DNA from: a virus
Lineage: Duplodnaviria; Caudoviricetes
Reading direction: 5' to 3' (one strand)
Virus record (IMG/VR): IMGVR_UViG_3300046804_003398
Length of the DNA: 64,000 nucleotides
Of this stretch, positions 7,737 through 62,076 are shown in pieces. Below the pieces are notes generated by a model, which worked only from the letters and a program-made list of their open reading frames with translations, was not told the origin of the DNA and ran no database searches. The stretch's first letter is position 1. Each line of letters begins with the position of its first letter. A program made the position numbers and the translations under genes.

Positions 7737-7737
7737 C

Positions 7738-8379: not shown

Positions 8380-8380
8380 C

Positions 8381-9352: not shown

Positions 9353-10196
9353 CGATAAACGAGTGAATGTATATGAATGTGAAGCTTTGGGATTTCCTCA
9401 AAGTGATGCTAGATTCATTCCCGATGACTATTTGGCAAAACAAAAGTTCGTTATTCTCAGAACATGTTTTGGTATTGGTGATTGGGGTATCATCTCAGCA
9501 CTTCCCCGTAAACTAAAACGAAAGTATCCAGATTGTAAAGTTTACCTACCATCTGAGGCTTTGTTGTTCAAATTGTTCTCAGACATTCTAAGTCCGTCTG
9601 CTCTGACCAACAAACCATTTGGTGTAGTCAAAGACATCTTTGCAAATAATCCTTATGTGGACGGTTATGTTGATACTTGTGAGGGTGACATCTTCCACGA
9701 TCACTACAGAATTTATAATCCAGAATTGCCCGACGAACCTCTTGCCAAACAAATGTTGAAGTTCTGGCAATTCAGAGATCATGAATTGGATGATGTCTTG
9801 CCAGAATTGTATTTTAGCAAATCAGAGATTGGTTTGGGTGATAAAATCATTAATGGGTTTACTGGTGACAAGCCATTTGGAACATTGTTGTTGTCGAACC
9901 GTTATGACTATCAATCAGATGAAAAGTTGTTGAAATACATCAATCTGTATGATTTGCCATATTACTACTGGACATCAAAACCAATAGAACTCACAAGGTT
10001 TGCTAATATAAACAAGGTATTGGACATGAGTATGTTACCTCTACGTATTCAGTTTTACATAAAAACCCGAGCACTTGTCAATATTGGAAACCAAAGCGGT
10101 ATGAATGATACTATTGCGAAGTATACCAAGAACATTACGCTTCAAAGACAATTTCCATTAGGAGGTAATTTTGTTGAAGCAACGCAATACATCTAA
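9330..10196 (+). CDS. GT9 (ADP-heptose:LPS heptosyltransferase)-like protein
   Basis: ILRTCFGIGDWGIISALPRKLKRKYPDCKV matches the GT9 N-terminal GIGD...L...LK..YP pattern; also NPYVD and LVNIGNQSG. Confidence 0.65.
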   Translation: MIFWRILNDKRVNVYECEALGFPQSDARFIPDDYLAKQKFVILRTCFGIGDWGIISALPRKLKRKYPDCKVYLPSEALLFKLFSDILSPSALTNKPFGVVKDIFANNPYVDGYVDTCEGDIFHDHYRIYNPELPDEPLAKQMLKFWQFRDHELDDVLPELYFSKSEIGLGDKIINGFTGDKPFGTLLLSNRYDYQSDEKLLKYINLYDLPYYYWTSKPIELTRFANINKVLDMSMLPLRIQFYIKTRALVNIGNQSGMNDTIAKYTKNITLQRQFPLGGNFVEATQYI

Positions 10197-10220
10197 AGTA
10201 TAAAAATCTATATATACCAT

Positions 10221-11423
10221 ATGAATATTAGTTTTATCATTCCGTCACGAAACAACCTAAAATACCTCAAGTGGGCGTATGCGTCTTTGAGAAAAAATCT
10301 AAGTCACAAACAGCATGAAGTTTGTGTTGCAGATGATTTTAGTGATGATGGAACGTCTGATTGGTGTAAGCAAACTGCCGAAAACGATCCTCATTTTAAG
10401 TTCATTCGCAATGATGGTCCAACCCGTCTAGGTCACACAATTTTATATGACCGTTTGATCAACGAAGTTGCCACCAACGATGTGGTCATGATTTACCATG
10501 CCGACATGTATGCGTGTCCAAATTTTGACAAACACATTGAGAAATATATTCAACCAGGCACAGTTGTGAGTTTGACCCGAATTGAACCACCTCTTCATCC
10601 TCCAGGTCCAGAAAAGATTGTGATGGATTTTGGAACCGAACCAGAGTTGTTCATCGAAGAGAACTTCTTGAAGTGGTTCAATGAAAGTAAGATCAGCCGT
10701 CGTGACAAAACCACTGAGGGTATATTCGCACCATGGGCTCTTTACAAGAAGGACTTTCAATCAATTGGTGGTCACGATCCACTTTATGCTCCTCAAAGCA
10801 AAGAAGACAGCGACATCTTCAATCGTTTTCAATTGAACGGTTACAAGTTTGTTCAAACATGGGAAGGATGTGTATATCACATGACATGTCGTGGCAGTCG
10901 ATACAATCCTACTCTAACTACCGTTGGTAAGGAAAGCGATGAGTGGTTGGCTCAGAACAACAAGAGTGCCAGAAACTTTATTCGTAAGTGGGGTCACTTT
11001 GTAAAACACACAGATACCATGAAGCCTATTGTGCCTAAACGTTATGATGTTGGGTTTGTGGCAATCAACTGTGATGAATACAGATTGATGTTGTTGGAAC
11101 CATGGTGTGATACAATCTACACGGATGTTCCATATGATCGTTATATTCAGGCTGAACAAAAGAATACCAAGTTCAATCTCAAGAAGAAATTGAAGAGATA
11201 TGAGGATCAAAAGACAAACGATGTGATCGTTGAGTTTGATGCATCTAAGTTATCCACACAGAACTTTGAGTTTTTCAACATGCTTCAATTGATGTTAGAA
11301 GATAGTGGTGCTGTAGGCAGCGTAGAGTTTGACATTTTCAAGTTAAAAATAAATAACTTAAAAGATTATGGTCAAGGATTGATAGATATTAATGATAAGT
11401 GGTATTTAGAAAAACTAGTATGA
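10221..11423 (+). CDS. Glycosyltransferase family 2 with C-terminal extension
   Basis: ISFIIPSRNN, VCVADDFSDDGT, MIYHADMY, IGGHDPLYAPQSKEDSDIFNRF. Confidence 0.9.
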   Translation: MNISFIIPSRNNLKYLKWAYASLRKNLSHKQHEVCVADDFSDDGTSDWCKQTAENDPHFKFIRNDGPTRLGHTILYDRLINEVATNDVVMIYHADMYACPNFDKHIEKYIQPGTVVSLTRIEPPLHPPGPEKIVMDFGTEPELFIEENFLKWFNESKISRRDKTTEGIFAPWALYKKDFQSIGGHDPLYAPQSKEDSDIFNRFQLNGYKFVQTWEGCVYHMTCRGSRYNPTLTTVGKESDEWLAQNNKSARNFIRKWGHFVKHTDTMKPIVPKRYDVGFVAINCDEYRLMLLEPWCDTIYTDVPYDRYIQAEQKNTKFNLKKKLKRYEDQKTNDVIVEFDASKLSTQNFEFFNMLQLMLEDSGAVGSVEFDIFKLKINNLKDYGQGLIDINDKWYLEKLV

Positions 11424-12217
11424 ATAAAGTATCAATAGGAATTATTGGTTATGGATATGTAGGAAAAGCGTTTCATAACTTTTTCAAAGGTCATTATGAT
11501 GTAAAGATATATGATCCAGCACTTGCAAATTCATCTACGAAGGATGATATCAATAAGTGTGATCTTGCTGTAATTTGTGTTCCAACTCCAGAAAACGAAG
11601 ACGGTAGTTGTAACACCACTATTGTGGAACAAACGGTTCAGTGGGTAAATACTCCATTGATTCTTTTGAAGTCTACCGTAGAAATTGGAACCACAGATCG
11701 TCTCATAAAGACCTATAATAAAGATATTGTGTTTAGTCCAGAGTTTGCAGGTGAATCAAAGTATTGGACACCCGATGGATTTACTACCGATGTTAAACAA
11801 ACTCCGTTCTTTATTTTTGGTGGTAAGAAGGAATTGTGTTATAAATTGATTGAAATTTATACGCCAATTACAGGTCCAAGCAAAACCTATAGAGTAACTG
11901 ATCCTATCAATGCCGAACTCGCAAAGTATATCACCAATACGCAGTTGGCAATGAAGGTAGCATATTGTAATGAGATCTATGACCTTTGTGAGAAGTTGGG
12001 CACCAACTATTATGAAGTTCGTGATCTGTGGTTATTGGACCCTAGAACTACCAAATCACATACAGCCGTGTTTACTGGTGAACGTGGTTTTGGTGGTAAG
12101 TGCTTTCCAAAAGATACAAAGGCTTTGGTTAAGTTGGGTGACAAGGTTGGTGTTGACCTAGCAATACTAAAGAGTGTATTAGATAGTAATGAAAAACAAC
12201 TAAACAAAAACGTATGA
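11420..12217 (+). CDS. UDP-glucose/GDP-mannose dehydrogenase family protein
   Basis: IGIIGYGYVG Rossmann motif, ICVPTP, LKSTV, FSPEF, AELAKYITN...K, GFGGKCFPKDT with catalytic Cys. Confidence 0.9.
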   Translation: MNKVSIGIIGYGYVGKAFHNFFKGHYDVKIYDPALANSSTKDDINKCDLAVICVPTPENEDGSCNTTIVEQTVQWVNTPLILLKSTVEIGTTDRLIKTYNKDIVFSPEFAGESKYWTPDGFTTDVKQTPFFIFGGKKELCYKLIEIYTPITGPSKTYRVTDPINAELAKYITNTQLAMKVAYCNEIYDLCEKLGTNYYEVRDLWLLDPRTTKSHTAVFTGERGFGGKCFPKDTKALVKLGDKVGVDLAILKSVLDSNEKQLNKNV

Positions 12218-12591
12218 ATCTAGCAGACCTCGACATTCCTCTAATTTTCTGGATATCATTTATACTAATCGTGTGGTTTGAAAGTGATATCATGACCACC
12301 ATTGCTAACTTAACAAACACTCGTAGTTTGATTAGAATTGATGAGTTCTTAAAGTATAAATTAGAAGTTGATGTGATGTCTAACTATCCTACGTTTTTGT
12401 ATAGTAAATACCCAAGTTACTTTACAAAGCTAATATCATGTCCAATTTGTTTATGTTTCTGGTCAACATTGGTAACAGTGAGCTTATTGGTATATGCAGT
12501 TGGTCATCATGAAATATACACGCTGTTGTTGTTTCCAATCAACTATGTGTCCAGTTTGTTTATCTATTTAATTATACGTAAGCTACTATGA
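12214..12591 (+). CDS. Small membrane protein, DUF1360-like
   Basis: Three hydrophobic segments and a CPICLCFW motif. Confidence 0.5.
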   Translation: MNLADLDIPLIFWISFILIVWFESDIMTTIANLTNTRSLIRIDEFLKYKLEVDVMSNYPTFLYSKYPSYFTKLISCPICLCFWSTLVTVSLLVYAVGHHEIYTLLLFPINYVSSLFIYLIIRKLL

Positions 12592-12869
12592 TTATTGGTG
12601 ACTATCAATCGTTTTATAACTTAATCAAAGGTGACCCAAACCAAATTGCAATTAGTTTGGGTGAATGCATTGACGGATTGTCAAGAATCTGTTCGTGCAA
12701 CAAAAGCAGAAAACAAGCAAAAGCTCAAGAGTGTAACGAACTTTATGTTAAGTTTGTGAAGAACAACCAAAACACTTTGGCTGACTATATGCGCAATAAA
12801 ACAAATGATGCGGAAATAGTTTTTAACCATAACTCGCATCATCCGATTTTGAAATTGAAACTACGTTAG
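12588..12869 (+). CDS. Hypothetical protein (93 aa)
   Basis: 4-nt ATGA overlap with the upstream gene; converges on the dNMP kinase gene. Confidence 0.7.
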   Translation: MIIGDYQSFYNLIKGDPNQIAISLGECIDGLSRICSCNKSRKQAKAQECNELYVKFVKNNQNTLADYMRNKTNDAEIVFNHNSHHPILKLKLR

Positions 12870-13528
12870 ATTACAGACTTAGTTACAATCTTCATTGAAA
12901 TCAAAGCATCCTCGACATGTTTTCTGATGTAAGGACACTCCAATAACTGTTCCTTGGTTGTGTATTTCTCCGACATATCTTCCCATTCAAAAGCATAATC
13001 GGCACGTTTCATCACCTTGGGATTATTAAGCATCTCATGTTCATTAGGAGCTGCTTCGTAAATCTTAACTGCTTTTGATGTGGTGACTCTACGTTTGGAT
13101 GGAGCTGGACCCATCTTGAATCGGGTAACATGAACCAACTTGCCTGCCATCTTGAATTGAAGCCAAGTGCATTCATCTTCTGGATAATGATCATATCTGA
13201 TATCGGTGATAAAGAATACATCTGCCTTTGACTTGGCAATGTGCTTTTCCACCTTTTGAGTCCAATACTTACCTTCACTGGTCTTTCTCATCACATCACC
13301 ATATGCAACGAGGAGTGGACGAATGATGGTCTTCTGTGCGGTATCTTCTGTGAATACATCAATACCTGTCTTTTTGAAAATAAGATCCTTGAGATCACTC
13401 TTCAATTCATAAGCAAGAGCATGACGCTCTGTCTTGAGTTTATATTGTTTTTCAAGAATGTCTTGTGCGACAGTTGTAAACAAATCTTTTCCGCTTCTGG
13501 CCATGCCTGATACACCTATAACTTTCAT
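12866..13528 (-). CDS. Deoxynucleoside monophosphate kinase (T4 gp1-like)
   Basis: VIGVSGMARSGKD P-loop, RPLLVAYGDVMR, FITDIRY..E. Confidence 0.85.
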   Translation of the reverse strand: MKVIGVSGMARSGKDLFTTVAQDILEKQYKLKTERHALAYELKSDLKDLIFKKTGIDVFTEDTAQKTIIRPLLVAYGDVMRKTSEGKYWTQKVEKHIAKSKADVFFITDIRYDHYPEDECTWLQFKMAGKLVHVTRFKMGPAPSKRRVTTSKAVKIYEAAPNEHEMLNNPKVMKRADYAFEWEDMSEKYTTKEQLLECPYIRKHVEDALISMKIVTKSVI

Positions 13529-46065: not shown

Positions 46066-46126
46066 AGTGTTATTCCTTTATGTCCTAGATATAAATATGA
46101 TTAAGATTCAATTCTTGTGATTTTTT

Positions 46127-47287
46127 TTATAATTTGTTGAGATCTTTATCGACAAGATTTGTGATGTTTATTCTCAACTTACTTATGAATCCACTGGCTC
46201 TCAAAAGTTTGAATACAAGGTTTTCGGTGCTGTATTCTCCTCCCGAACTCAAACCAGCTTCACGCATTTTATAGATACGTTGAACCAAGTCTTTCAATGT
46301 ATCTAAATCTTGTTGTTCGACAGCTGTGTTTATTTTAGTCACCAAGTCTTTGTATTTGGTCTTTATAGCGTCTTTGTCGATCTTAACGTCTTCATATGAT
46401 GGTTTCTTTACCCACTTGTTATGAAGGATACTATAAACAGCTTGGCTACGGTTTACATCGTTAATGTCTTGTATGTAAACTTCTACTGGATGATTGTCAA
46501 CACTGATGTCATGTTGTTCATTCCATTTGTTTTTGTAACCGTCAACTAGTTTCTTGACCAGTTCTTTGTTTTCATCAACCTTTGAAAAATCGATCAAAAC
46601 GTGTAGATCAATATCACTGGTTGGTGTCCAATTATAACCAGCTGTGCTTCCTAAAAAGTATATGTCTTCAATTGGTGCGGTCAACTCAGTATCTTTGTAA
46701 AATGTAGTTGCTATCTTTAACAACTGACTAAGAATTTCTGGTTTTAAAGTTTCACCGTCCCAAATTTCTGGATTCAAAATACTGTTGTATATTCTGTATG
46801 ACTCTTTGACACCCAACGTTTCTTTGAGTTTATTGATAGTGTCTGTTGCATTTTTGTGAAGTATACCAATGCCACCAGCTTGAATAAACTCATTTACGTT
46901 GTCTTCACGGTCGTCAATCAATATTGAGTCTGGTGTAGCAAATTTAGCTTTGTCTTCTCTTTCTGGAACCAAGTTTTGTTTGAGTGTAATGTTGTGATTC
47001 GACAACCACTTTTCTTTGCCTTGTATACACTCTGGATCAGTTCCATGACTCAATATTTCAGTTGGAAACTCTTTGATGAAATTGTAAAGAATTTTACCGT
47101 CGTTCATCCAAGGCATCGTTGCATAAAAATTGGGACTGTTTTTATGAACCAACTCGTATCTTTTTTCTTTACCGTGTTCAGCCTCGTATGTTTCTACTGG
47201 AACTCCAAATAATCTTTCAAACTGTTTTTCCCAGTCTGTCAGAACTCCATCCATATCAACGTAAATTTTGTATTTGCTTTGAACCAT
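46127..47287 (-). CDS. Fusion: HAD 5'-nucleotidase-like domain + Pol-beta-superfamily nucleotidyltransferase
   Basis: N-terminal YVDMDGVL...ILIDDR; C-terminal FLGSTAGYNW...SDIDLH...VEVYIQD. Confidence 0.8.
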   Translation of the reverse strand: MVQSKYKIYVDMDGVLTDWEKQFERLFGVPVETYEAEHGKEKRYELVHKNSPNFYATMPWMNDGKILYNFIKEFPTEILSHGTDPECIQGKEKWLSNHNITLKQNLVPEREDKAKFATPDSILIDDREDNVNEFIQAGGIGILHKNATDTINKLKETLGVKESYRIYNSILNPEIWDGETLKPEILSQLLKIATTFYKDTELTAPIEDIYFLGSTAGYNWTPTSDIDLHVLIDFSKVDENKELVKKLVDGYKNKWNEQHDISVDNHPVEVYIQDINDVNRSQAVYSILHNKWVKKPSYEDVKIDKDAIKTKYKDLVTKINTAVEQQDLDTLKDLVQRIYKMREAGLSSGGEYSTENLVFKLLRASGFISKLRINITNLVDKDLNKL

Positions 47288-49584: not shown

Positions 49585-49627
49585 ATCTTAGTCTAATATA
49601 AATATGAACAGTTCCAGATATATTCAA

Positions 49628-51634: not shown

Positions 51635-52870
51635 TTATCCTATATAAATGTGAACTGGAACCTTAGACAACATTTTGTTCATTGCTTCAGATTCTTTTTC
51701 TGTATTCTCCATTTGATTTACTCTCAAAGACTTATCCAACATATCTCTGAGTTTCTCAAGAAGATTAGACATTTCATCCTTAGCTTCAGCACGAAGTTCA
51801 GCACCGTCCAAGGTTACTTCACCACCTGGAATTGGAACTGTGCTATACTTCTGCAAAATACGACCAAGTGTTTCTTTACATAGTGCCAAGAAATACTTTT
51901 TGATCCACTGTTTACCAGCTTGATTGATCTTACAATATTGACAATACTCATACGGCACATCACTTGGATCACTAATGTATTCATATCGTGAACCACTAAA
52001 GAAGTTGGTGATGTTCTTGTCACTTTCAACGTAGTAGTCGATATAGATTCTAAGATCGGTTGTTGGTATTGGGAAAATTCTCAACATGTTGTCACCAGTG
52101 ATTTGGAAACCGTAGTGACTCTTACGAACCATGTCGTTGAACTCAATTGCTTGAACACGTTCCAAATCTTCGAAGATTGGAGTCATCAAGAATTGTGTTG
52201 CTGGACTGTAAGCACTGAATCCCATTTCGCTCAAAACGTTACTATAACTCATACCAGTCATACTGAATGGGTCATAAATACGTGCGATTGCTGGTGGTCT
52301 AAAATGGAACACTCTACGAACTTCAATGCGTGATCCAGTAAGATGTTCAATTTGATTACCAATAATTTGATTCAAGTCAAATACTTGGTGACTGTCTTGT
52401 GGACCACCAAAACTTGCAGATCCAGTTGCCAAGAATGATGCTCTCTTTAACTCTACTTCACCACCAACCAATGCTTCACTACCATATTGTTTGCTTAGTT
52501 GGACGATAAATGGTATACCGCTACCCTTGACACTAAGACCCGTTAGGTTTTGATATTGATCTTGTGGCAAACCTTGAACGTTAACCAAATTGTTTACGAT
52601 GTTGAATTCGTTGATTACACGATTATATTCCAACACAGCTTCTTCAAAACATGCGTAAAAGTTGACATCGATCATTTCAATGTCAACGATTGGGTAACCT
52701 AAACGTTTTGCTGCCCACATCGCACTACCACTACAATCGTTCTCAAACGTTGTTTCTGCGACAGAACAGTTGGTTTCGTCAAGATAATAACCAAAGGGAA
52801 CACTCGCAGTAGTAACCGCACTACCTGATCCTGGCCACCTTACTCTATCTTGGTCTAAATTAGCACTCAT
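51635..52870 (-). CDS. gp13: Neck protein (T4 gp13-like)
   Basis: KRLGYPIVDIE, WIKKYFLALCKETLGRILQKY...IPGGEVTLDG. Confidence 0.8.
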   Translation of the reverse strand: MSANLDQDRVRWPGSGSAVTTASVPFGYYLDETNCSVAETTFENDCSGSAMWAAKRLGYPIVDIEMIDVNFYACFEEAVLEYNRVINEFNIVNNLVNVQGLPQDQYQNLTGLSVKGSGIPFIVQLSKQYGSEALVGGEVELKRASFLATGSASFGGPQDSHQVFDLNQIIGNQIEHLTGSRIEVRRVFHFRPPAIARIYDPFSMTGMSYSNVLSEMGFSAYSPATQFLMTPIFEDLERVQAIEFNDMVRKSHYGFQITGDNMLRIFPIPTTDLRIYIDYYVESDKNITNFFSGSRYEYISDPSDVPYEYCQYCKINQAGKQWIKKYFLALCKETLGRILQKYSTVPIPGGEVTLDGAELRAEAKDEMSNLLEKLRDMLDKSLRVNQMENTEKESEAMNKMLSKVPVHIYIG

Positions 52871-52915
52871 TAAATATAAATATCGGAATCTTCGATATTA
52901 GTGCTAAAATCTACT

Positions 52916-53455
52916 CTATACCAAATTATTACCTTCAAACTTTCGTGGACCACTTAAATCCACAATTTTATACTTAATTGGCATATCTTTTATAGTAGCA
53001 TAAACAGCCTTTATGTTCTTGGGACTGTCATCAATAAAAAAGATATCGTTGTAACCCTCATTTTCAATTTTATCCTTGATCCAGTTAGCCTTAGCCATAG
53101 GATCACTAGTTCCAACGGTCACAATAGGTATATTGACTTTAAAATACCTCTGGAGAACGTTTTGTATGTGAGGCTGACTCTCTGGACCTCTTGCAGTCAA
53201 AACGACGGCAAGACGACCATCTGACCCCGCACTGACTATCTTATAAAACCTCTTGGCTACATTACGAATAACTACTGGATCTATAACTGAACTAAACTCT
53301 GAAAAATCAAATTTGTCACCGGGTTGTTGAGTATACACCGCATATTGTGCGGGAGTTAATTTGACAACTGAACCATCTGATTTGGTCAATATTACCTTAC
53401 CACCAGTTTCAAAAAGTGTGTCATCAAAATCAAATACTCTTAGTTTCTTGGTCAT
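52916..53455 (-). CDS. HAD-superfamily phosphatase
   Basis: RVFDFDDTLF (DxD), VLTAR, K, FFIDDSPKN. Confidence 0.85.
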   Translation of the reverse strand: MTKKLRVFDFDDTLFETGGKVILTKSDGSVVKLTPAQYAVYTQQPGDKFDFSEFSSVIDPVVIRNVAKRFYKIVSAGSDGRLAVVLTARGPESQPHIQNVLQRYFKVNIPIVTVGTSDPMAKANWIKDKIENEGYNDIFFIDDSPKNIKAVYATIKDMPIKYKIVDLSGPRKFEGNNLV

Positions 53456-53583
53456 AGGAATGATTGCGCAATCAACTTATAGTCAGAAACATGTGGTTTT
53501 GGCTGTGCTTTTTTAACAGCATCCTCCTTCAGTTTCTTTGCCTTAAGAACCTTCTGAAGAGTGTTTTTTACTTTCTCATTCAT
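53452..53583 (-). CDS. Small basic protein (43 aa), not in the ORF track
   Basis: MNEKVKNTLQKVLKAKKLKEDAVKKAQPKPHVSDYKLIAQSFL*; overlaps both neighbours in operon fashion. Confidence 0.5.
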   Translation of the reverse strand: MNEKVKNTLQKVLKAKKLKEDAVKKAQPKPHVSDYKLIAQSFL

Positions 53584-53845
53584 ACATTTTTGTAATTTTG
53601 ACCACAAGTTTTCCAGAGCCTTTTATGACTCTGTGATACGTTTCTTTAGGTATAAATATTGAACCCTCCATCAAACACGGAAGATTATTATCCAATTGAA
53701 CCTCCCAACCACCATTATTCTCTACAACCTCAACCAAACGGTTTTCTTTGTCCAAATGCCACTCTAATTCATGACTATCTATATTGGATTCAAACTCACG
53801 AATATACTGATTATTCCCCAGACTTGTCTCTGTATAAGGCATCAT
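53576..53845 (-). CDS. Small cupin-like protein
   Basis: LEWHLDKENRLVEV...IFIPKETYHRVIKG cupin-type His motifs. Confidence 0.6.
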   Translation of the reverse strand: MMPYTETSLGNNQYIREFESNIDSHELEWHLDKENRLVEVVENNGGWEVQLDNNLPCLMEGSIFIPKETYHRVIKGSGKLVVKITKMYE

Positions 53846-54639
53846 ACATTTCTAGGACGCATTGGTTCTATTGTCCTCAGATGTAAATCATCGTCATCAG
53901 ATTGTTCTACACTGTCTACTTTCTTTACATTTTTATAGTAATTTTCAATCCACTTTCTACCGATTGGATTTTTTATAGGACTCTTCAAAAAGTCAATCAC
54001 ACTTCTCAAAACACCTCTATCAATTGGTTCATTGTTCTTTGTTCGATCAACTATTCTAAAGTTGTTACGAAATATGTTTTGAAAATGACCCAAATTATTT
54101 TGACAGCTAAACCACATCTGTGATAACAAATCCTCTGGTATCTTACGAGATCTCTTCGCATTACGTTCCATTGCAACTTGTAAACTAGTGTTGACAAATA
54201 TCATGTAACAATCATATCCATGTTGTTCCATAACACGTTTCTTGATTTGTATTGATTCTATACTATCACCAGTTCCATCTATGATAAGTCCTAATTTAGC
54301 CTTTCTATACATGTCTAGTTTTTTTCTTGTGATTCGTTTTGCTTTTTCTCTAGTAGATTGGGGACCAACAGTCAATCGTTCAAACTCTTCTGGACTCAAT
54401 TTACTAAAGTCTGTAGATATGTTCATATTATGAAGCATCTTCTCAAACTCGTTATCACTATTGATTACCTTCAAACCATATCGATTTACAGATGAATTGG
54501 AAGGCAAATCAAATAACTCAGTAGCTACAGTGCTTTTTCCACTACCAGGCCCACCAGCCATAAATATACACTTGAGAGTTGATGGATCATCGACACCCTC
54601 GGTCAATCTATGCTTTTTTAGTAGTTCAAGTAAATTCAT
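53842..54639 (-). CDS. P-loop kinase (zeta-toxin/AAA_33/PNK kinase-like)
   Basis: FMAGGPGSGKS, INSD, LIIDGTG, FVNTSLQVAMERNAKRSR lid motif. Confidence 0.85.
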   Translation of the reverse strand: MNLLELLKKHRLTEGVDDPSTLKCIFMAGGPGSGKSTVATELFDLPSNSSVNRYGLKVINSDNEFEKMLHNMNISTDFSKLSPEEFERLTVGPQSTREKAKRITRKKLDMYRKAKLGLIIDGTGDSIESIQIKKRVMEQHGYDCYMIFVNTSLQVAMERNAKRSRKIPEDLLSQMWFSCQNNLGHFQNIFRNNFRIVDRTKNNEPIDRGVLRSVIDFLKSPIKNPIGRKWIENYYKNVKKVDSVEQSDDDDLHLRTIEPMRPRNV

Positions 54640-55631
54640 AATGATTTGATATAAATATCAGTGTCTCTCTTCAATTCATCCTCTGGCACATTATCCAAAT
54701 TATCACCATACTTCTGTAACCAATATTGTTTGATTTTACCTAACATTGGTCCTGGCTTTACATTGAAGTTTTGCATGATCCAATCACCACCATATTTAGA
54801 TTTAACTGGGGTAAATGATTCAATCTCTTTTTGTTTATCCAACAACATCTGATACTTGTCTGGAAACAACCGCTTCAAGAAATAGTCTGGGTCACTAATC
54901 TGTTTGTGTTTATTCAAACCAATCAATGACTTTCTAATATAATCAGCACTAGGTCTACCAGCTCTAACTCTCTTTCTATCACTATGATTCATAGTTTGAC
55001 CCTTATAGTCATCGCTATCAAACATAGGACTACTACTGATAAACTTAACTACATCATCATTGTTTTGTATACTATCGTAATCACCCAATACATCACCATA
55101 ACCAAGTATCTTCAAACCATCTTTTAGATTCTTAGTAATTAGTATATCGTGATGTCTACCACTCTTATCTACATAAATCTTTTGAAAGCCTGTAGTAGCA
55201 TACTTGTAACCATTTTGTCTAGCCATTACCCCAAGTATTCCACTCAAGTCTCCCAGAGCCAAATACATTCTTTGTGCTTCAAAGTCTTCATCATTATCTG
55301 AATGTATAAAATCTATATGAACATTCTTGCCTGTATTGCTTTTATACAACACACTATAAATGTTACCGTTACGACTGTAATCCAATACTTTCTCACCCAA
55401 TTGTGATTTTAGAGTATTAGCTACATCACCACCACCAGATACAACCACATCAATATCACCGTGGTCTGCTTTAGATGGTAATGCTTTGCTTAATTCAAAC
55501 TTATTGAATTTGTTATTCAACAAGTTTTTAAGCTCGTCAAAGATACTATTCATTTCAGCGGTAGACACTCTACTGGCTCTAGTGCCAAAGAGTTTACCAC
55601 CTTCAACTAATAGATCCATCAATTTGATCAT
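54636..55631 (-). CDS. Pol-beta-superfamily nucleotidyltransferase
   Basis: HGDIDVVV, third Asp in VHIDFI, and a C-terminal GGDWIMQNFNVKPGPMLGKI resembling the tail of CCA-adding/poly(A) polymerases. Confidence 0.65.
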   Translation of the reverse strand: MIKLMDLLVEGGKLFGTRASRVSTAEMNSIFDELKNLLNNKFNKFELSKALPSKADHGDIDVVVSGGGDVANTLKSQLGEKVLDYSRNGNIYSVLYKSNTGKNVHIDFIHSDNDEDFEAQRMYLALGDLSGILGVMARQNGYKYATTGFQKIYVDKSGRHHDILITKNLKDGLKILGYGDVLGDYDSIQNNDDVVKFISSSPMFDSDDYKGQTMNHSDRKRVRAGRPSADYIRKSLIGLNKHKQISDPDYFLKRLFPDKYQMLLDKQKEIESFTPVKSKYGGDWIMQNFNVKPGPMLGKIKQYWLQKYGDNLDNVPEDELKRDTDIYIKSL

Positions 55632-56131
55632 AGAGGATTGTATGTCTTTTCAAACTCAACTTTAGCAATACGATAATAACCAGTATTAGCTGGATCTTTT
55701 ACCAAATAATCACCAGGCTTGATAATCATATCTTCTCCCCACGGAGCTTTAAATGTTACTGGTTCGCCTGTATACAAAGCAACTTGTCTTGGAGATTGTT
55801 CTGGATAAATATCTCCACCAACATTACCAGTATATAACTTAGGTAACTTAACTGCCTTGATTACATAATTCTCACCAGTAGCACCACTAAAAATAATATC
55901 GCCGACCTCAGCAGTGTTTTGTGTTTCTTTACCATCTGTAGTTGTAGTAACCACTGGTTGTTGAATTGTTGACTTGGTATATGTCATTGGAGGCATAGAA
56001 CCTGGTTTACCATCTTCAACGTATTTATAAACCAACTTTTGTTTGGTTACTGGCTTAAATGCTAATGTGGATGCAATTTGATTGATATCTGCATTAGCAA
56101 CTTCACTGAGAATGTCTTTTAGTTTAATCAT
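55628..56131 (-). CDS. PGDYG-like domain protein
   Basis: TTDGKETQNTAEVGDII..GATGE.Y and APWGEDMIIKPGDYLV..YRIAKVEFEKTY. Confidence 0.6.
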   Translation of the reverse strand: MIKLKDILSEVANADINQIASTLAFKPVTKQKLVYKYVEDGKPGSMPPMTYTKSTIQQPVVTTTTDGKETQNTAEVGDIIFSGATGENYVIKAVKLPKLYTGNVGGDIYPEQSPRQVALYTGEPVTFKAPWGEDMIIKPGDYLVKDPANTGYYRIAKVEFEKTYNPL

Positions 56132-56661
56132 AGGTTTATAAAGTATTTGCCTTTTGGCCCACTATACTTGAATCTGGTAATTGGTAAAGATATATTTAGA
56201 TTGTCTTTGATGTGTGGAAAGCTACCCTTCTTCACATAAGCTAATGTCATATGGGGTTTGTAGTCTGGGTAACCGTCAGTATTTGGATAACCATCACATC
56301 TACGTCTCAATTCAGTTAAGATAGGACTCTTTTCAACTTCAAACTTAACCACATCAAATTTATCATTTTCAAACAAATTGAGTGCTTTCAATACCACATT
56401 AAATGGCTTTACACCTTGAAGGATTCTAGCAACATCGGGTCTACCAATATCTGGTTCAAATCCATACTTGAGAGTCACATGAGGTTCTTCATCGTAACCA
56501 TATGTAGGATCATTAGGATCAGTATATAGTATTTGTGGTGGTATTGCGGTTCTACCAAGTCTAATTACATGTGGTCCATAAGTAGGACTTACATGTGCCA
56601 TTAAACAACCCTTTTCAACGTGTCTATTTTCTACGAGTAACATATTTTCTAATAATTTCAC
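56128..56661 (-). CDS. 2H phosphoesterase (Acb1/T4 gp57B-like)
   Basis: Two HxT motifs: EPHVTLKYG and KPHMTLAY. Confidence 0.85.
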   Translation of the reverse strand: MKLLENMLLVENRHVEKGCLMAHVSPTYGPHVIRLGRTAIPPQILYTDPNDPTYGYDEEPHVTLKYGFEPDIGRPDVARILQGVKPFNVVLKALNLFENDKFDVVKFEVEKSPILTELRRRCDGYPNTDGYPDYKPHMTLAYVKKGSFPHIKDNLNISLPITRFKYSGPKGKYFINL

Positions 56662-57901
56662 GAATCAAATGTTCTTTCTTTACCAATTGGTCCAAAGGCA
56701 CACCTCTATACTTTTGTCTTAGTTGCGCAATTGGCATACCATATTGTTTTTCAGCTTGAGCAATCAGATTGTATCTATCTTGTTTCTCTTTTTCTAAAGA
56801 TGCCAATTTACGAGCAACTACAGTAGCAACAGTATTCTTAATGTTATCATTATAATACTTCTCACCCGATACCAAAAGATCATTCAATATTTTAATTTCT
56901 ACTTCTAACCCATTTACTTCTTTTTCTAAATTATCCTTTTCAGCAGGCGTGAGTTTCGCTCCTGTTGTATGAAGTTTTCCTCTTTTTTCAATAAACTCTT
57001 GTGTCTTATCATCAATTACTTTTTCCAAACTAGGTTGTTGTTGTATTTTCGTAAGACCCCAAGAAGGATAATCAAATTCACTACCAACCGGTGTATTGGA
57101 CAAATCACTATCAGTTACCTTTATTGATACATTATTACCTTTAATAGCGGTAACATCAGCTCTTATACCTAGTCCTAGGATTTTTATTTTGTCACCTACT
57201 TTGAATTCAACATCTGCTTTATCGGTAACAGATGGTTTAGGTGCGGCCGGAGGAGTTTCTTTCTTAGGTTCTTCTTTATCATACATTTGATCGTATGACA
57301 TCATCTTGCTACCAGTTTCATACAAACACTCAGTTGGATTATATCCATTAAACTCTATGACTTTTTCATATTGATCTTTGTATGGAATTACCTTATCTTT
57401 ATTATAATCCCAGAATGTTACAATGATAGCTTTACCACTCGGGATTGTGCTTTCAATTTGAAGATCCAAATTTTCTGGCGGTTTACCATCTGTATTGTCT
57501 ACCTCAAAGATTCTACCTTTCATGATAGGATCTGAATATGCGCCCATTCTACCCAATCCCTTTAGAATATTTTCCAAATCCAAATGACCACCACCATTAT
57601 TACTAGCCTTTAATCGTTTGATACCTTTTTGGGCCCAATAATCCAATTGTTCTCTCTTATTAGAATCATACTTTATTTCCGGAGCGTCTTCTAATTCTTT
57701 GATTTCTTTTAATACATCACTATCATCTGAGTAAAATTCTTTCTTGTTGTCGCTATATCCAAATATTGACTTTTTACCACTCTTGTCGTCTTTATAAACA
57801 AAAAAAGCACATCTGTTGGCCGGAGAAGTGTAGTTATACAACTTTCTCTTGTAACTAACAGTGTCAGGATTTTCCACCAAAATATCAATTAATTTAACCA
57901 T
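56624..57901 (-). CDS. Hypothetical protein (425 aa)
   Basis: Starts with the shared MVKLIDILVE leader; C-terminal coiled coil. Confidence 0.8.
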   Translation of the reverse strand: MVKLIDILVENPDTVSYKRKLYNYTSPANRCAFFVYKDDKSGKKSIFGYSDNKKEFYSDDSDVLKEIKELEDAPEIKYDSNKREQLDYWAQKGIKRLKASNNGGGHLDLENILKGLGRMGAYSDPIMKGRIFEVDNTDGKPPENLDLQIESTIPSGKAIIVTFWDYNKDKVIPYKDQYEKVIEFNGYNPTECLYETGSKMMSYDQMYDKEEPKKETPPAAPKPSVTDKADVEFKVGDKIKILGLGIRADVTAIKGNNVSIKVTDSDLSNTPVGSEFDYPSWGLTKIQQQPSLEKVIDDKTQEFIEKRGKLHTTGAKLTPAEKDNLEKEVNGLEVEIKILNDLLVSGEKYYNDNIKNTVATVVARKLASLEKEKQDRYNLIAQAEKQYGMPIAQLRQKYRGVPLDQLVKKEHLIREIIRKYVTRRK

Positions 57902-57906
57902 AAATT

Positions 57907-58509
57907 TTACCAGTATTTTCCTTTACCCTTGTTTCCTAAACTACGAATACGATGACTACGACAACTCCAGTAACCAGCTGTAGTTCTATCTTTCTTTTGA
58001 CTACATCTGTGACGTGCAGCAAAACTCTTACGACGAGCCTTGTTACCAGCTCTACTTCTCATATTTGGATCACCAAAAGTTACCTTCTTCACATTGCCGT
58101 TTTTTGATTTGACATACACGGCGTATTTCTTAGGACCGCCTGGAGTTCTGAATGGTCTATTGAGATGAACAGTGCGACCTCTGTGTTTCAACTCCATGAT
58201 CAAATCTTCTTCGACTTCAATAGGAGCATCCAAATAAACTTCTCGACCTTCAAATACTTCCTTCTTACCAAGATCACTTTCCACCAATTCAGCATCCGCA
58301 TCACACAACTCTATTAGGTTGTCATAATACAATTTACGAACTTCATCAATCAACTCAAAGTAAGACTCACTGTAGGTTCGAAAAATGTTCTCACTGAGAG
58401 ATATATTCTTTGACAAATGATATCGTAAATTTGAACTTGTTTCTACTTCTTCCAACAAGTTCATTGAGCAAAGCGAGTCGCTCTCTATAAGGTCGTTAAG
58501 CTTGATCAT
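57907..58509 (-). CDS. Conserved-type phage protein with basic C-terminal domain
   Basis: MIKLNDLIE leader; KKVTFGDP...ARRKSFAARHRC...AGYWSC C-terminal domain. Confidence 0.75.
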   Translation of the reverse strand: MIKLNDLIESDSLCSMNLLEEVETSSNLRYHLSKNISLSENIFRTYSESYFELIDEVRKLYYDNLIELCDADAELVESDLGKKEVFEGREVYLDAPIEVEEDLIMELKHRGRTVHLNRPFRTPGGPKKYAVYVKSKNGNVKKVTFGDPNMRSRAGNKARRKSFAARHRCSQKKDRTTAGYWSCRSHRIRSLGNKGKGKYW

Positions 58510-58521
58510 ATGATATAAATA

Positions 58522-59448
58522 TTATCCGTATTTGTTTATCGTTTTTAATTCGTTAATCAATATCTTTTCCTCAGCATCCAAGTTCTTATCCAATTCAACA
58601 AACACATCATCCAACGACATCTTGGTATTTGAACGTTTTTGAATAGTCTTTAAACTTTCAAGAGTATCAACCACAGTATCCAATGTGTTCTTATGTCTAT
58701 TGAATGTCGGTAATTCTATGTGGTTACTAAATTGAACTGCTTTTGGAGCAACACCTTTGAGAAGATTGATGATCGAAGCAACAATATGTTCAAAAATACC
58801 AAATATAGCTCCAGCAATTGGGTTTGTTGCTGCCAAAAATCTCAATACCATAAAACATATCAAGAATATCAATATGCCAGTTACACCGATAGTAACAAAT
58901 CGTTTTAGACCATACATCACACCACCAAGTCCCATCCAACTATTTACTTCATCAACGGTCACTTGCAAGGCATCAGCCTTCTTTGCAACTTGTGTTGCTT
59001 GGGTTTCAAGACCCTTTATTTGTTCTTCATAAACATCCTCAATTTCCTTCTGTTTAACTTGAAGTGCTAAAATTTCTTCGTCTCTTTGTTTTAGAAGTTT
59101 ACTACCCTTGTCTTTTTCCTTTTGAACTTCACTATTCAAAAGATCTGTAAGTTCCTTAATTTTGTTCAACTCGTCGATATTAGGGTTGCCAGTAATGTTC
59201 AATACCCTATTGTTAAAGTCTATAGCAGTCTTGACTTGAACTGGAGGATTGGTAACTGCCTTCAACGAGTAATCAGTTCCAGATGCTAACGTAGCTACTT
59301 GCTGTAATTTCTCACCTTCGTTTTTTGCCAATTCAACTCGGGTCTCCGCAAGAACATCTTTTGTCTTTTGAACTTTTTCTACATTGGACGTTTTGCATCC
59401 TCCGACCAATAAAAAAGAAGCCAAAAATAGTGTAAATAGTTTTCTCAT
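58522..59448 (-). CDS. Lipoprotein with coiled coil and C-terminal membrane segment (spanin-like architecture)
   Basis: MRKLFTLFLASFLLVGGC lipobox, coiled coil, then FVTIGVTGILIFLICFMVLRFL. Confidence 0.55.
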   Translation of the reverse strand: MRKLFTLFLASFLLVGGCKTSNVEKVQKTKDVLAETRVELAKNEGEKLQQVATLASGTDYSLKAVTNPPVQVKTAIDFNNRVLNITGNPNIDELNKIKELTDLLNSEVQKEKDKGSKLLKQRDEEILALQVKQKEIEDVYEEQIKGLETQATQVAKKADALQVTVDEVNSWMGLGGVMYGLKRFVTIGVTGILIFLICFMVLRFLAATNPIAGAIFGIFEHIVASIINLLKGVAPKAVQFSNHIELPTFNRHKNTLDTVVDTLESLKTIQKRSNTKMSLDDVFVELDKNLDAEEKILINELKTINKYG

Positions 59449-59514
59449 ACCTATAAATATTGAATCGGTATATAAAAACTTGTGTATTTCACCACACTCA
59501 TTTATGATATTAAC

Positions 59515-60288
59515 ATGTCAAAATATTGTGACACATCACTGATATATCTAAAATCGATCAACAAATCGGTCGCACGTAACTTGATCGAAAAGAACCACTA
59601 TACACACAAGTGGACCAGTTGTTCTGTAGCATATGGTGTGTATACCAAAGATTATGTTGAAAGCACATTCTTTGGAGGATTCGATAGTAGATTGATTGGT
59701 GTTCTTGTATATGGTAATGCTGTAGGACGTAATTCAAGCACTAGTATAACTCCGTTACTAACCAACGATAACGTGTTTGAATTGACCAGATTGTGGATTG
59801 AAGACGGTCACGGCAGTAACATAGAAAGCTACTGTATAGCAGAAAGTTTCAGATTGTTGAACATGGAGTTTCCTCAAATCAAGTGTATCTTGAGTTATGC
59901 TGACAGTGAAGTGGGTCACGCCGGAACTATTTATCAAGCAACTGGTTTCTTATATCAAGGGGACAATTATGTTGATATAGCACTGATGCCAAATTATAGT
60001 GTTAGTTTGATTGGACCACCCAACTATGATTGGATACACAGTAGAAACGTCTATGGTAGATGGAAAACACACAATGTGGACAAACTCAAGGAACGTATAG
60101 GAAAAACGTTCTGGCGCAAACGTGAGAGTGGCAAACACCGTTATATTAAGTTCATCAGTAACAAGATTGAAAATAAACGGTTGTCAAAGTCACTGATACA
60201 TAAACTGTTACCCTATCCAAAATCAACATCGTTCACAGAACAAATACAAGAAGTTGTGGTGAATAATGACCACAAATTTTTCCAATAA
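59515..60288 (+). CDS. Mom-like GNAT-fold DNA base-modification protein
   Basis: LIEKNHY, LIGVLVYG, ELTRLW, ES, ILSYAD..VGHAGTIYQATGFLYQG, KHRY. Confidence 0.8.
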   Translation: MSKYCDTSLIYLKSINKSVARNLIEKNHYTHKWTSCSVAYGVYTKDYVESTFFGGFDSRLIGVLVYGNAVGRNSSTSITPLLTNDNVFELTRLWIEDGHGSNIESYCIAESFRLLNMEFPQIKCILSYADSEVGHAGTIYQATGFLYQGDNYVDIALMPNYSVSLIGPPNYDWIHSRNVYGRWKTHNVDKLKERIGKTFWRKRESGKHRYIKFISNKIENKRLSKSLIHKLLPYPKSTSFTEQIQEVVVNNDHKFFQ

Positions 60289-60345: not shown

Positions 60346-62076
60346 TTATACGGTGTCGAGATCGGCGATCAAGACCTTACCGTAGAACTCAGGACGCACT
60401 ACCTTCTTAGCGTAGCGAGTCATCACACCACGGCGTGGAGTGAAGTTCACTGGATCATAGACCAATGGAGTTTGGATGAGTGGGATGTATGGAGCATACA
60501 CAGCACCAGTCTCCAAGAAGTTGCTACCACGGAAACCAACGAGGATAGCATTATCGGTCATGTATGGGTTCTTGTAAACTTGGAAGCGACTTGCGAAGCT
60601 ACCAACACGGCTTACACCCATTGCGAACTTAGCTTGGTCACCGTCAGTGTTCACAACATATCCTGGGATTGACTCCAAGATGGTTGCTACGTCTGGCGAA
60701 CATACCAAGAAGTTTGCGCCACCACGTAGAGTCAATTGGTGAATCTTGTTAGAGACCTTTTGGATCTTGTTACCAAGAGTTTGGAACCAAGTGCTCTTTA
60801 CGTAAGCGGTGCGGTTTGGTGAAGCGTTAACAACACGGGTGAACGAAGCCACATCGGTGGTGTTGTTTACAGTCTTGGTGAACTCAGTTCCGATTTGGGC
60901 AGACCAAGCTTCGGTAGTTACACCAGTGACAGACTCGTTCAACATGTCGAGGATTTCGAGGTCGATTTCCATCGAAACATACTCACTCAAGAGAGCAGTA
61001 AGTTCTGCTTCTGCATCAATAGAGTGATATGCGTTCAAGTCTTGAGCCAATTCTGGGGTCCAGACAGCCTTCAACTTACGGGTCTTAGCAACGATTGGTT
61101 CGCTCTTAAGTTCCAAGTTGACTTCTGGGATCTTGATATCAGTGCCGATAGATTGGGTATAGACGTTGTTAGCAACACCAGAACCTTCACCAGCGGTCTT
61201 ACCGTCTTCAAAGTCACCACGGAGGTTGTCCGAAGGTTGAACTGTGTAGTTCAAACGTGCAGTAGTAGATGGAGCAGCAGCACCAGCAGATTGACTTACG
61301 AACAAGTTAATTTGATAGTATGGGTTTGCCAAGCTACCAGTGTTAACTGCGGTTGCGTAAGTGTTCAATACAGTGTAAGCTACACCAGAACTCTTTTGAA
61401 CACCGAAAGAACGCACTGCGTTCAAGTCAACGTTCCAGAGGTTACCGGAACCTGGCTTTGCTTCGGTGTTGTCATCAAGGTTAAAGGTAATCTTGTAGAC
61501 ACCTGGAACATTGTTAGAACCGTTAACGGAAGCACTGAAAGCAGAATCGAATTGTAGATCGTTCCAGCTTGCGGTAGCTACGAGAACAGTTGCGTTGGAG
61601 CTAGAGACGGTGCGCTCAGAATAAGCATAGCGTCCTTGGCCATAGAGACCATTTACAGCAGCATCAGTAGAACCGAGCTTCTTTTGGTTACCACCGAACA
61701 AGCTTTCGCCTGCAGTGTGTCCCAATTGAGTGCCGGAACCATACTTGAAGTCGAGATAGAAGATAAGACCGCTTGGGAGGTTCATTGGTTGAACCGAAAC
61801 GAACTCCTTAGCAGCGATCTCAGCAAATACACGACGGACCAATGGAAGAGCAACGCCTGCCCATTGTTCACTGTTTGCACTAGTTCCAGTTGTTGAAGCT
61901 TCGTCCAACAATTGCTTTGCTTGGTTTTCCAAGAGGATTGACATGTGTGCCTTTTCAACACCGGTGGTGTTTTCGAGAAGACCTGTCTTTTCCCACTTGT
62001 TTTGAAGACCACGGGTTTCAGCCATTAGCTTAGCCTGTGGATTCATATTATTTGTTAGTAGACTCTTTACGTCCAT
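60346..62076 (-). CDS. gp23: Major capsid protein (T4 gp23-like)
   Basis: PLVRRVF, VSVQPMNLPSGLIFYL, AKTRKLKAVWTPELAQDLNAYH, APYIPL, FTPRRGVMTRYA. Confidence 0.97.
   Translation of the reverse strand: MDVKSLLTNNMNPQAKLMAETRGLQNKWEKTGLLENTTGVEKAHMSILLENQAKQLLDEASTTGTSANSEQWAGVALPLVRRVFAEIAAKEFVSVQPMNLPSGLIFYLDFKYGSGTQLGHTAGESLFGGNQKKLGSTDAAVNGLYGQGRYAYSERTVSSSNATVLVATASWNDLQFDSAFSASVNGSNNVPGVYKITFNLDDNTEAKPGSGNLWNVDLNAVRSFGVQKSSGVAYTVLNTYATAVNTGSLANPYYQINLFVSQSAGAAAPSTTARLNYTVQPSDNLRGDFEDGKTAGEGSGVANNVYTQSIGTDIKIPEVNLELKSEPIVAKTRKLKAVWTPELAQDLNAYHSIDAEAELTALLSEYVSMEIDLEILDMLNESVTGVTTEAWSAQIGTEFTKTVNNTTDVASFTRVVNASPNRTAYVKSTWFQTLGNKIQKVSNKIHQLTLRGGANFLVCSPDVATILESIPGYVVNTDGDQAKFAMGVSRVGSFASRFQVYKNPYMTDNAILVGFRGSNFLETGAVYAPYIPLIQTPLVYDPVNFTPRRGVMTRYAKKVVRPEFYGKVLIADLDTV

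Follow-up and report, generated by a model that had tools for sequence, protein, structure and literature searches.

The 64,000-nucleotide stretch of DNA analysed here (the window) belongs to the virus record IMGVR_UViG_3300046804_003398 (Duplodnaviria; Caudoviricetes) and forms part of a contig of 260 kb; the phage itself is uncultured and has numerous relatives in marine metagenomes. Between positions 52916 and 56661 it carries six open reading frames (ORFs), which encode a HAD-superfamily phosphatase, a protein of 89 amino acids (aa), a P-loop kinase, a nucleotidyltransferase (NTase), a PGDYG-like protein and a 2H phosphoesterase (Table 1). An initial annotation, made from the sequence alone, had proposed that this cluster is possibly an RNA-end repair or signal-destroying module, and all six genes were found on the minus strand, at the coordinates and with the motifs it had given. 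At the protein level the only cultured kin are T4-like pelagiphage and Methylophilales phages, while a DNA-level search of phage records returned a 68-bp match to Pelagibacter phage HTVC008M and nothing else.

The cluster is part of a longer unit. From the gene of a 200-aa protein down to that of the 89-aa protein the reading frames overlap by 4 nucleotides (nt), with the exception of one 5-nt gap and one 20-nt overlap, and they therefore form one coupled string that starts at position 58509. This means that the real unit reaches 1.85 kb upstream of the stretch originally noted and gains two genes, those of the 425-aa and 200-aa proteins. The whole block is flanked by a Gp23-type capsid gene on one side and a neck or adaptor gene on the other, which places it inside a head-gene module. 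The motif ATATTTATA is present in 14 copies in the window against 0.93 expected, with 12 of them on the minus strand, and these minus-strand copies mostly end about 4-12 nt ahead of gene starts, including those of the lipoprotein, the 200-aa protein, the kinase and the adaptor; the copy at 58514-58522 ends 4 nt before the ATG of the 200-aa gene. It may be a late-promoter-like or start-region motif, with almost no space left for a ribosome-binding site. As ATATTTATA precedes genes of the string as well as structural genes, the two sets look co-expressed.

Table 1. Genes and motif copies of the head-module block in the window.
Feature	Coordinates	Strand	Remarks
HAD-superfamily DxDxT phosphatase, 179 aa	52916..53455	-	without leader; FDFDDT, phrog_415, DUF2608
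89-aa protein, function not assigned by family	53576..53845	-	without leader; cupin-like lead only
P-loop kinase, AAA_33/Pnk/PSTK/zeta group, 265 aa	53842..54639	-	N-terminal extension ending LTE, followed by G
Nucleotidyltransferase (NTase), 331 aa	54636..55631	-	leader MIKLMDLLVE; predicted palm and thumb ~15-191; helical C-domain, CCA-enzyme-like tail 277-331
PGDYG-like protein, 167 aa	55628..56131	-	leader MIKLKDILSE; PF14083 sub-threshold
2H phosphoesterase, 171-177 aa	56128..56661	-	short leader MLLVE, or MKLLENMLLVE from GTG start
425-aa leader-bearing protein	56624..57901	-	MVKLIDILVE; no family match (Pfam, PHROG); kept in close relatives
200-aa leader-bearing protein	57907..58509	-	MIKLNDLIE; phrog_7595 6.6e-16; first gene of coupled string
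Gp23-family major capsid gene	60346-62076		Gp23 4.7e-75
Head-tail adaptor-like or neck gene	51635-52870		other flank of block
Lipoprotein with coiled coil and membrane helices	58522-59448	-
ATATTTATA late-promoter-like motif	54650..54658	-	just 5' of kinase start
Further ATATTTATA copies (examples)	59452-59460, 58514-58522, 53651-53659, 52875-52883, 49597-49605, 46090-46098

The feature that most of these genes have in common is a short N-terminal leader of the MIKLxDLLxE type. It is 5-14 residues long, ends in [L/I]-x-E and is found on six genes (those of the 200-aa and 425-aa proteins, the 2H enzyme, the PGDYG-like protein, the NTase and the kinase). A strict form of the pattern, M-[IVLKN]-[KRNL]-L followed by a hydrophobic pair and E, occurs at just four ORF N-termini in the 64 kb, and these four are contiguous, running from the NTase through the PGDYG-like and 425-aa proteins to the 200-aa protein; the 2H enzyme (MLLVE) and the kinase (...RLTE) bear looser versions. 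A search of IMG/VR anchored on the NTase gave 35 related loci (L numbers below), 22 of them non-redundant, and in these 22 the leader stands on 38 of 525 ORF N-termini as compared to 2 of 2071 internal Met positions. It is shared by 11 unrelated families, which include a CCA-adding enzyme, a lysozyme and a 151-aa protein encoded next after a prohead protease gene. The shared residues are written in differing synonymous codons and the upstream DNA is not conserved, and selection therefore acts on the peptide; a DNA-level repeat was rejected as an explanation on the same two grounds.

The end of the leader coincides with the start of the conserved protein. In the NTase family the leaders vary from 9 to 17 residues and always end in [L/I]-x-E directly ahead of an invariant GGKLFG, and distant homologues without a leader have M-GGKLF or M-GGNL as their start, which falls precisely on the predicted cut. 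The variable N-termini of the kinase family likewise end in [L/I]-x-E before an invariant G, with one member beginning MIKLIDIL, and the 2H homologues of other phages align from residue 18 only. Residues 1-12 of the NTase are disordered in an AlphaFold2 (AF2) model.

The closest parallel is found in phage T4, whose internal proteins carry N-terminal capsid-targeting propeptides of 10-19 residues (PMC9026906, PMC5694885). Within the T4 internal protein IPIII's capsid-targeting sequence, positions 4 and 7 control targeting and residues 8 and 10 cleavage, and the protease gp21 cleaves after Glu, as in ITE-6, LTE-619 and LIE-9 (PMC9026906, PMC5694885). The positions conserved in the leader described here, L4, L/I7, L8 and E10, are those that are critical in IPIII, and the leaders of Table 1 have the [L/I]-x-E end of a T4-type propeptide of about 10-19 residues. 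Among themselves, the T4 internal proteins, a diverse group with anti-defence roles, have only the targeting sequence in common (PMC3012670). The likeness to these proteins and to Alt thus extends from the short propeptide, with hydrophobic residues at 4 and 7 and L-x-E at 8-10, to a diverse and fast-evolving cargo which shares the tag alone, and to a gp23-type capsid, an S77 protease in the lineage and apparent expression with the head genes (PMC9026906, PMC3012670). A Peptidase_S77 (gp21) gene is indeed present in the sister locus L016 and the related record G002 (7e-31 and 1.2e-30), where the major capsid protein is about 85% identical, and it lies within the head-gene block, upstream of the scaffold and capsid genes. 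There are differences as well: the leader sequence is not that of T4, the T4 cargo consists of small basic inhibitor proteins or ADP-ribosyltransferase while the cargo here is mostly recognisable nucleic-acid-end enzymes, and packaging is here a prediction. By this analogy the leader probably mirrors the T4 capsid-targeting propeptide and acts as a tag for loading into the capsid and subsequent clipping. Neither the leader nor the head-module position had entered the initial annotation, and both probably alter how the cluster works.

The NTase has no match in Pfam (E <= 0.1), NCBIfam or the PDB by sequence. In the AF2 model (pLDDT 85.6) residues 15-191 fold like the palm and thumb of family-X DNA polymerases, with a Z score of 11.9 over 183 aa for Pol beta, 10.3-11.4 for TdT, Pol lambda and Pol mu, and 10.3 over 157 of 176 aa for the minimal Pol X of African swine fever virus (ASFV). 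With D59, D61 and D107 invariant in the family, the model thus shows what is expected of a family-X core, namely palm plus thumb (Z 10.3-11.9 over 157-183 residues) with a D-x-D plus D triad of carboxylates, at about 11-18% sequence identity to family X. For RNA-specific NTases, MenT and CD-NTases the Z scores go no higher than 7-8, over some 92 residues, and an identity as CD-NTase or MenT-type enzyme was rejected as such matches (Z ~7-8) cover the palm only. Viral fold matches are uncharacterised phage proteins and giant-virus PolX. In contrast to family X, the NTase has an extra helical C-domain of 135 residues, and no 8-kDa or finger HhH domain was detected in the protein: the palm is preceded by a mere 15 residues or so, and the C-domain matches no HhH fold.

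It is the end of this C-domain that recalls CCA-adding enzymes. The initial annotation had quoted a CCA-enzyme-like tail, which is present: BLASTP aligns residues 256-311 with the tail of the true CCA enzyme of a sister phage (3e-4), and hhalign gives a weak match to CCA-enzyme tails (E 8e-4). When the C-domain was modelled separately (pLDDT 87.7), its best match among 48,161 chains was the C-terminal tail of the Bacillus stearothermophilus CCA enzyme (1miv; Z 6.0 over 55 residues), with two further CCA enzymes within the eight best structural matches; the Z score is low because the element is small, and Foldseek on the isolated domain found no match. Taken together, this is convergent but modest evidence, from sequence and model, for a likeness of the tail to that of class II CCA enzymes, with which the NTase appears to share the C-terminal three-helix tail and the motif G-x-D/W...KPGP...G-K-I, next to which it is repeatedly encoded and to which it is fused once. 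Unlike these enzymes (B. stearothermophilus 1MIV), the NTase lacks head, neck and body domains. Its identification as a CCA-adding enzyme was rejected, since PF01743 is unmatched, the whole model reaches only Z 5.9 with 1miv against 11.9 with Pol beta, and the tail alone matches. Of the "CCA-like" description the tail therefore stands and the core does not. The family comprises 909 clusters at 50% identity (E <= 0.001), and sequence and model together point to a large, undescribed family that would combine a family-X core with a CCA-enzyme tail.

The remaining enzymes are of more familiar types. The kinase, with the Walker A motif GGPGSGKS, matches AAA_33 (1.7e-13; 51.5 bits against a cut-off of 27), Zeta_toxin (1.3e-10), phrog_12810 (4e-38) and the "polynucleotide kinase" family phrog_505 (5.6e-10). 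Its profile finds the seryl-tRNA(Sec) kinase PSTK (3.5e-4) ahead of the kinase domain of Clostridium thermocellum Pnkp (0.04) and of T4 Pnk (0.44), and by sequence it appears to belong to the tRNA/polynucleotide-kinase clade; its nearest solved relatives act on tRNA or polynucleotides. The HAD phosphatase has motif I in FDFDDT at residues 8-13 (D9, D11, T13) and motif IV in DDS (D142-D143), with D9, D11, K122 and D142-D143 invariant in 17 homologues. It matches phrog_415 (7.7e-8), as do 17 of 17 family members (best 3.6e-11), and DUF2608 (1.4e-6); its profile gives only weak nucleotidase and phosphoserine phosphatase (PSP) matches in the PDB, and tblastn found no match in 50,697 phage records. 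The comparison with T4 Pnkp, a 5' kinase fused to a HAD 3' phosphatase, which had been drawn for these two proteins is not supported for the phosphatase: the phosphatase is a separate gene 387 bp downstream of the kinase with the 89-aa gene in between, and its one tie to Pnkp is a PHROG label.

The 2H enzyme shows the two HxT motifs (HVT 61-63 and HMT 137-139) in the roughly 170 residues typical of its class, and matches 2_5_RNA_ligase2 (4e-13; 50.1 bits against 27) and LigT_PEase (5.7e-7; 30.1 against 23.3) above their cut-offs, with eight of eight family members matching Pfam 2H families. As judged from relatives, the ATG at 56643 is its likelier start. The PGDYG-like protein matches PF14083 at 3.8e-4 along profile positions 3-101 of 102, with 21.2 bits against a gathering score of 27, but Atlas places it at 0.93 to a PGDYG cluster. 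The 89-aa protein had been called a cupin, which is a lead only: no Pfam, PHROG or NCBIfam match was found, and its neighbours in Atlas include Cupin_2 (16% of the members of an adjacent cluster) and TehB-like. Its gene adjoins those of the NTase and the phosphatase in L016 and is located elsewhere in L035. A 51-aa ORF with a TTG start (53452-53607, minus strand) spans the gap between the 89-aa and HAD genes, with ATATTTATA 44 nt upstream, and this stretch, which may be a gene or regulatory DNA, has a 50% identical counterpart between the NTase and adaptor genes in L029.

Across the related loci, the association that recurs is that of the NTase with enzymes of RNA 3' ends. In L012-L016 the order is 200-aa protein, 2H, CCA enzyme, NTase, 89-aa protein and HAD, where the CCA enzyme is itself leader-tagged and has PolyA_pol, RNA-binding, HD and tRNA_NucTran2_2 domains. 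L035 has 2H, an 86-aa protein, CCA enzyme, PGDYG and NTase, while L026 has NTase, a cRec cyclic-phosphate domain (PF20274, 4e-29) and CCA enzyme. The NTase is paired with a CCA enzyme in L015, L018 and L030, and with a 2H enzyme in other contexts in L010, L015, L018 and L031, with L010 showing 2H, a 139-aa protein, NTase and a 277-aa protein outside any structural context. Of the 22 non-redundant loci, 6 have a CCA enzyme and 9 a 2H enzyme at a distance of up to 10 kb from the NTase, and in the metagenomic protein P0155 a complete CCA enzyme is fused to the NTase. The core association of the NTase with RNA 3'-end enzymes thus holds across loci and the whole six-gene set does not. A distant group (L017-L027, at about 7000-13000) has a leader-tagged NTase flanked by an ArdC-N-like 607-aa protein, DUF5661/DUF5872 proteins and proteins of 566-685 aa with cell-wall hydrolase domains, a set which looks like ejected proteins. 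The second most conserved neighbour of the NTase is the lipoprotein of Table 1. It is found in 14 of 22 loci, some of them from phages whose NTase is only 37% identical and whose other neighbours differ.

Building on the gene content, folds, leader pattern, neighbourhoods and fusion described above, we infer packaging, cleavage, substrates and a common pathway as follows, with a probability of roughly 0.45: the string would be a variable, late-expressed cargo of RNA or tRNA end-healing enzymes that is packaged in the capsid and injected. Where a propeptide resembling a capsid-targeting one occurs within a gp23-type head module, it implies that the protein is made late, packaged, clipped and injected. 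Since most of the cargo enzymes are leader-tagged, they probably enter the cell along with the DNA and there mend tRNA or RNA ends damaged by the host. A T4-like jumbo phage would thus hold a variable array of cargo genes in its head-gene block, with the cluster as the downstream part of this array and the cargo genes transcribed together with the structural genes. The leader would dock the cargo onto the scaffolding core, a gp21-type prohead protease would clip it after Glu, and the mature enzymes would remain inside the capsid until they reach the next host together with the DNA. There they could go to work immediately on RNA ends, which would most probably be those of tRNAs that host defence nucleases have damaged. 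In this pathway the kinase would phosphorylate 5'-OH ends, the 2H enzyme would open 2',3'-cyclic phosphates, the leaderless phosphatase, made in the cell, would strip the remaining phosphate, and the NTase, presumably held on the tRNA by its CCA-enzyme-like tail, would re-add nucleotides; in sister phages a true CCA-adding enzyme is present as well.

A narrower form of this model, which is speculative and judged distinctly unlikely, is a virion-borne kit for the repair of tRNA acceptor ends. Here the NTase would be a new kind of tRNA enzyme, in which a templated PolX-like core with a tRNA-binding CCA tail rebuilds nucleotides of the 3' strand on the 5' strand as template before CCA addition, while 2H or cRec enzymes and the kinase clean the ends, and the kit would be ready at DNA entry to pre-empt host defences that cut or tail tRNA.

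The enzymology itself would be of a known kind, as sets of Pnk, HAD, 2H, cRec, RlaP/Pol-beta NTase and CCA enzymes have already been catalogued in jumbo phages (PMC7824862). The cluster resembles these sets and the Pnkp and Rnl1 pair of T4 in the enzyme classes, in the CCA enzyme of the sister phages and in the presumed purpose, the reversal of host tRNA cleavage. It differs from them in that kinase and HAD are unfused, no ligase was found in the cluster or the window, the genes belong to a head module, are apparently expressed late and are tagged with a leader, and the NTase belongs neither to RlaP (PF10127) nor to the CCA enzymes. What is unusual, then, is that most members carry a capsid-targeting-like propeptide in a head module and that the most conserved member is an NTase with a predicted family-X core and CCA tail. 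A literature search found neither packaged repair enzymes nor phage PolX in virions.

Several observations weigh against the idea of a packaged RNA-healing cargo. The S77 protease was found neither in the window nor in the nearest record, G001, a 61-kb fragment; synteny suggests that the gene of this phage lies beyond the end of the window. The HAD and 89-aa genes have no leader, and a link of the phosphatase to that of T4 Pnkp was not recovered from the PDB by single sequence or profile, which leaves the PHROG label. The tail match of the NTase extends over a short stretch of 55 residues (Z 6.0) and has an hhalign probability of 25%, and the core of this protein resembles templated DNA polymerases, while the 2H enzyme is as near to Acb1 as to LigT. 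No tRNA was found within the 64-kb window, and tblastn with the RNA ligases of relatives found no homologue there, in agreement with the initial annotation, which had seen no RNA ligase; Rnl2-type ligases are present elsewhere in the related large records G002 and G005. Finally, the complete six-gene set occurs only in relatives more than 95% identical and the kinase only in near-identical ones (L001-L009), in L029 the NTase stands on its own, the distribution of PGDYG and HAD among the loci is patchy, and L028 has the order AAA_33 kinase, ATP-dependent DNA ligase, NTase. The initial annotation had named a lack of co-conservation across related phages as one of the results that would overturn its proposal; this lack is seen for the six-gene set and is not seen for the NTase with RNA 3'-end enzymes. 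Its RNA-end-healing module therefore survives in part, with the type of enzymology, the CCA-like tail, the CCA, 2H and cRec neighbours and the fusion of CCA enzyme and NTase in its favour, and without the NTase as CCA enzyme, the link of HAD to Pnkp and the conserved set.

The variability of the slot leads to the strongest competing explanation, in which it is a hot spot for the exchange of unrelated leader-tagged genes, so that the enzymes have separate targets and only by coincidence look like a pathway. This is unlikely but carries appreciable weight, as gene content is different in every lineage, from the kinase confined to L001-L009 through the lone NTase of L029 to the non-structural context of L010, and the array elsewhere includes a lysozyme, proteins of no assigned function and ArdC-N-like neighbours. 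L001-L009 moreover have an extra Laminin_G_3 gene of 726 aa beside the NTase (L002:7773-9953; one of 1394 aa is found in L011:8636-12820), and their NTase is 86% identical where the flanking genes are 95-100% identical, which together read as a sign of cassette exchange at the slot. Coincidence does not, however, account well for the recurrence of the NTase with CCA, 2H or cRec enzymes in several unrelated arrangements and in one CCA fusion, nor for the fact that every identifiable enzyme works on the phosphate ends of nucleotides or nucleic acids.

The second alternative retains injection, which would suit an enzyme that is needed before signalling starts, and turns to the destruction of nucleotide messengers: an Acb1-like 2H enzyme would degrade the cyclic nucleotides of the cyclic-oligonucleotide-based anti-phage signalling system (CBASS), type III CRISPR or similar systems, and the kinase, phosphatase and NTase would modify or consume messengers. 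The 2H enzyme is, like Acb1, a single-domain phage 2H protein with two HxT motifs, and there is weak profile similarity. Pfam Acb1 (PF23474) matches eight of eight members of the family (best 3.5e-6), and in the PDB Acb1 scores 0.06-0.18, with the 2H profile at 0.06-0.07, next to 0.016 for the LigT-like PH0099. The Pfam Acb1 scores of 24.1-24.3 bits nevertheless fall below the gathering cut-off of 27, while 2_5_RNA_ligase2 and LigT exceed theirs, and unlike Acb1 the enzyme is equally near to LigT-type RNA cyclic phosphodiesterases and has RNA-end enzymes as neighbours. With CCA enzymes next to it, cRec in the place of 2H in L026, a tRNA-enzyme tail on the NTase and no evident role for a Pnk/PSTK-like kinase, messenger destruction is improbable for the cluster. 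Since the 2H enzyme is equally distant from LigT and Acb1, the signal-destroying option, which had been put forward for the whole module, stays for this one gene.

DNA-end repair, which is considered improbable to the same degree, takes the NTase core at face value: a PolX-like polymerase would work with a Pnk-like kinase and a 3'-phosphatase to mend nicks and gaps in the ejected genome, for instance after damage by sunlight, as in single-strand-break repair by PNKP and Pol beta. The palm and thumb reach Z 10-12 along 157-183 residues with Pol beta, lambda, mu, TdT and ASFV PolX, well above RNA-specific NTases (Z ~8, ~92 residues), giant-virus PolX is among the viral fold matches, and L028 joins an AAA_33 kinase and an ATP-dependent DNA ligase to the NTase. 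However, this adjacency to a DNA ligase is seen in 1 of 22 loci, the 8-kDa and finger HhH domains were not detected in the NTase, 2H enzymes have no usual role on DNA, and the CCA-like tail, the CCA fusion and the CCA, cRec and 2H neighbours favour RNA. The least probable option is that the leader is not a packaging signal at all and serves translation initiation, folding or another compartment, with the enzymes acting late in the producing cell; the protease gene not located in the window or G001 and the untagged HAD and 89-aa genes of the same block would fit this, but the conservation lies in the peptide and not in the DNA, the leader ends in a gp21-type cleavage motif where leaderless homologues start, and the only genes to bear it are those of head modules in gp23/S77 phages.

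Phage RNA repair and the capsid-targeted internal proteins of T4 are each known, and their combination was not found described in the literature searched. If the packaged-cargo reading is correct, counter-defence against tRNA-targeting immunity would start before any phage gene is expressed, and the understanding of what "internal proteins" do would be widened. In non-model T4-like phages the short leader could find use as a tag for packaging, and the substrate of the NTase family is directly testable.

Some further observations concern neighbouring genes and related phages. A Mom-family DNA-modification gene (59482-60288, plus strand; 3.2e-42) lies antisense inside the head module, a position kept in relatives. 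The window also encodes a 386-aa protein (46127-47287, minus strand) in which an NT5C-type HAD nucleotidase is fused to a second Pol-beta NTase domain; this domain is unrelated to the tailed NTase, and in L026 and L033 the tailed NTase has fragments of this protein family directly upstream. In the large record G005 (L037, 373-2460) three genes adjoin, one for an RNA ligase whose N-terminus resembles a tRNA-binding domain, one for a Pnk-like kinase of 153 aa and one for a cRec-like protein of 130 aa, and this phage thus has a conventional RNA-repair operon and, elsewhere, a leader-tagged NTase. In the cultured, T4-like Pelagibacter phage HTVC008M (L036, 4242-8435) a homologue of the kinase starts MIPFILKE and lies near two further proteins. 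One is a DUF6267 protein (3e-135), which starts MYNDLLVE and has a KWDG motif, and the other is cytidylyltransferase-like/DUF5824. A cultivable system may therefore possess N-termini like the leader.

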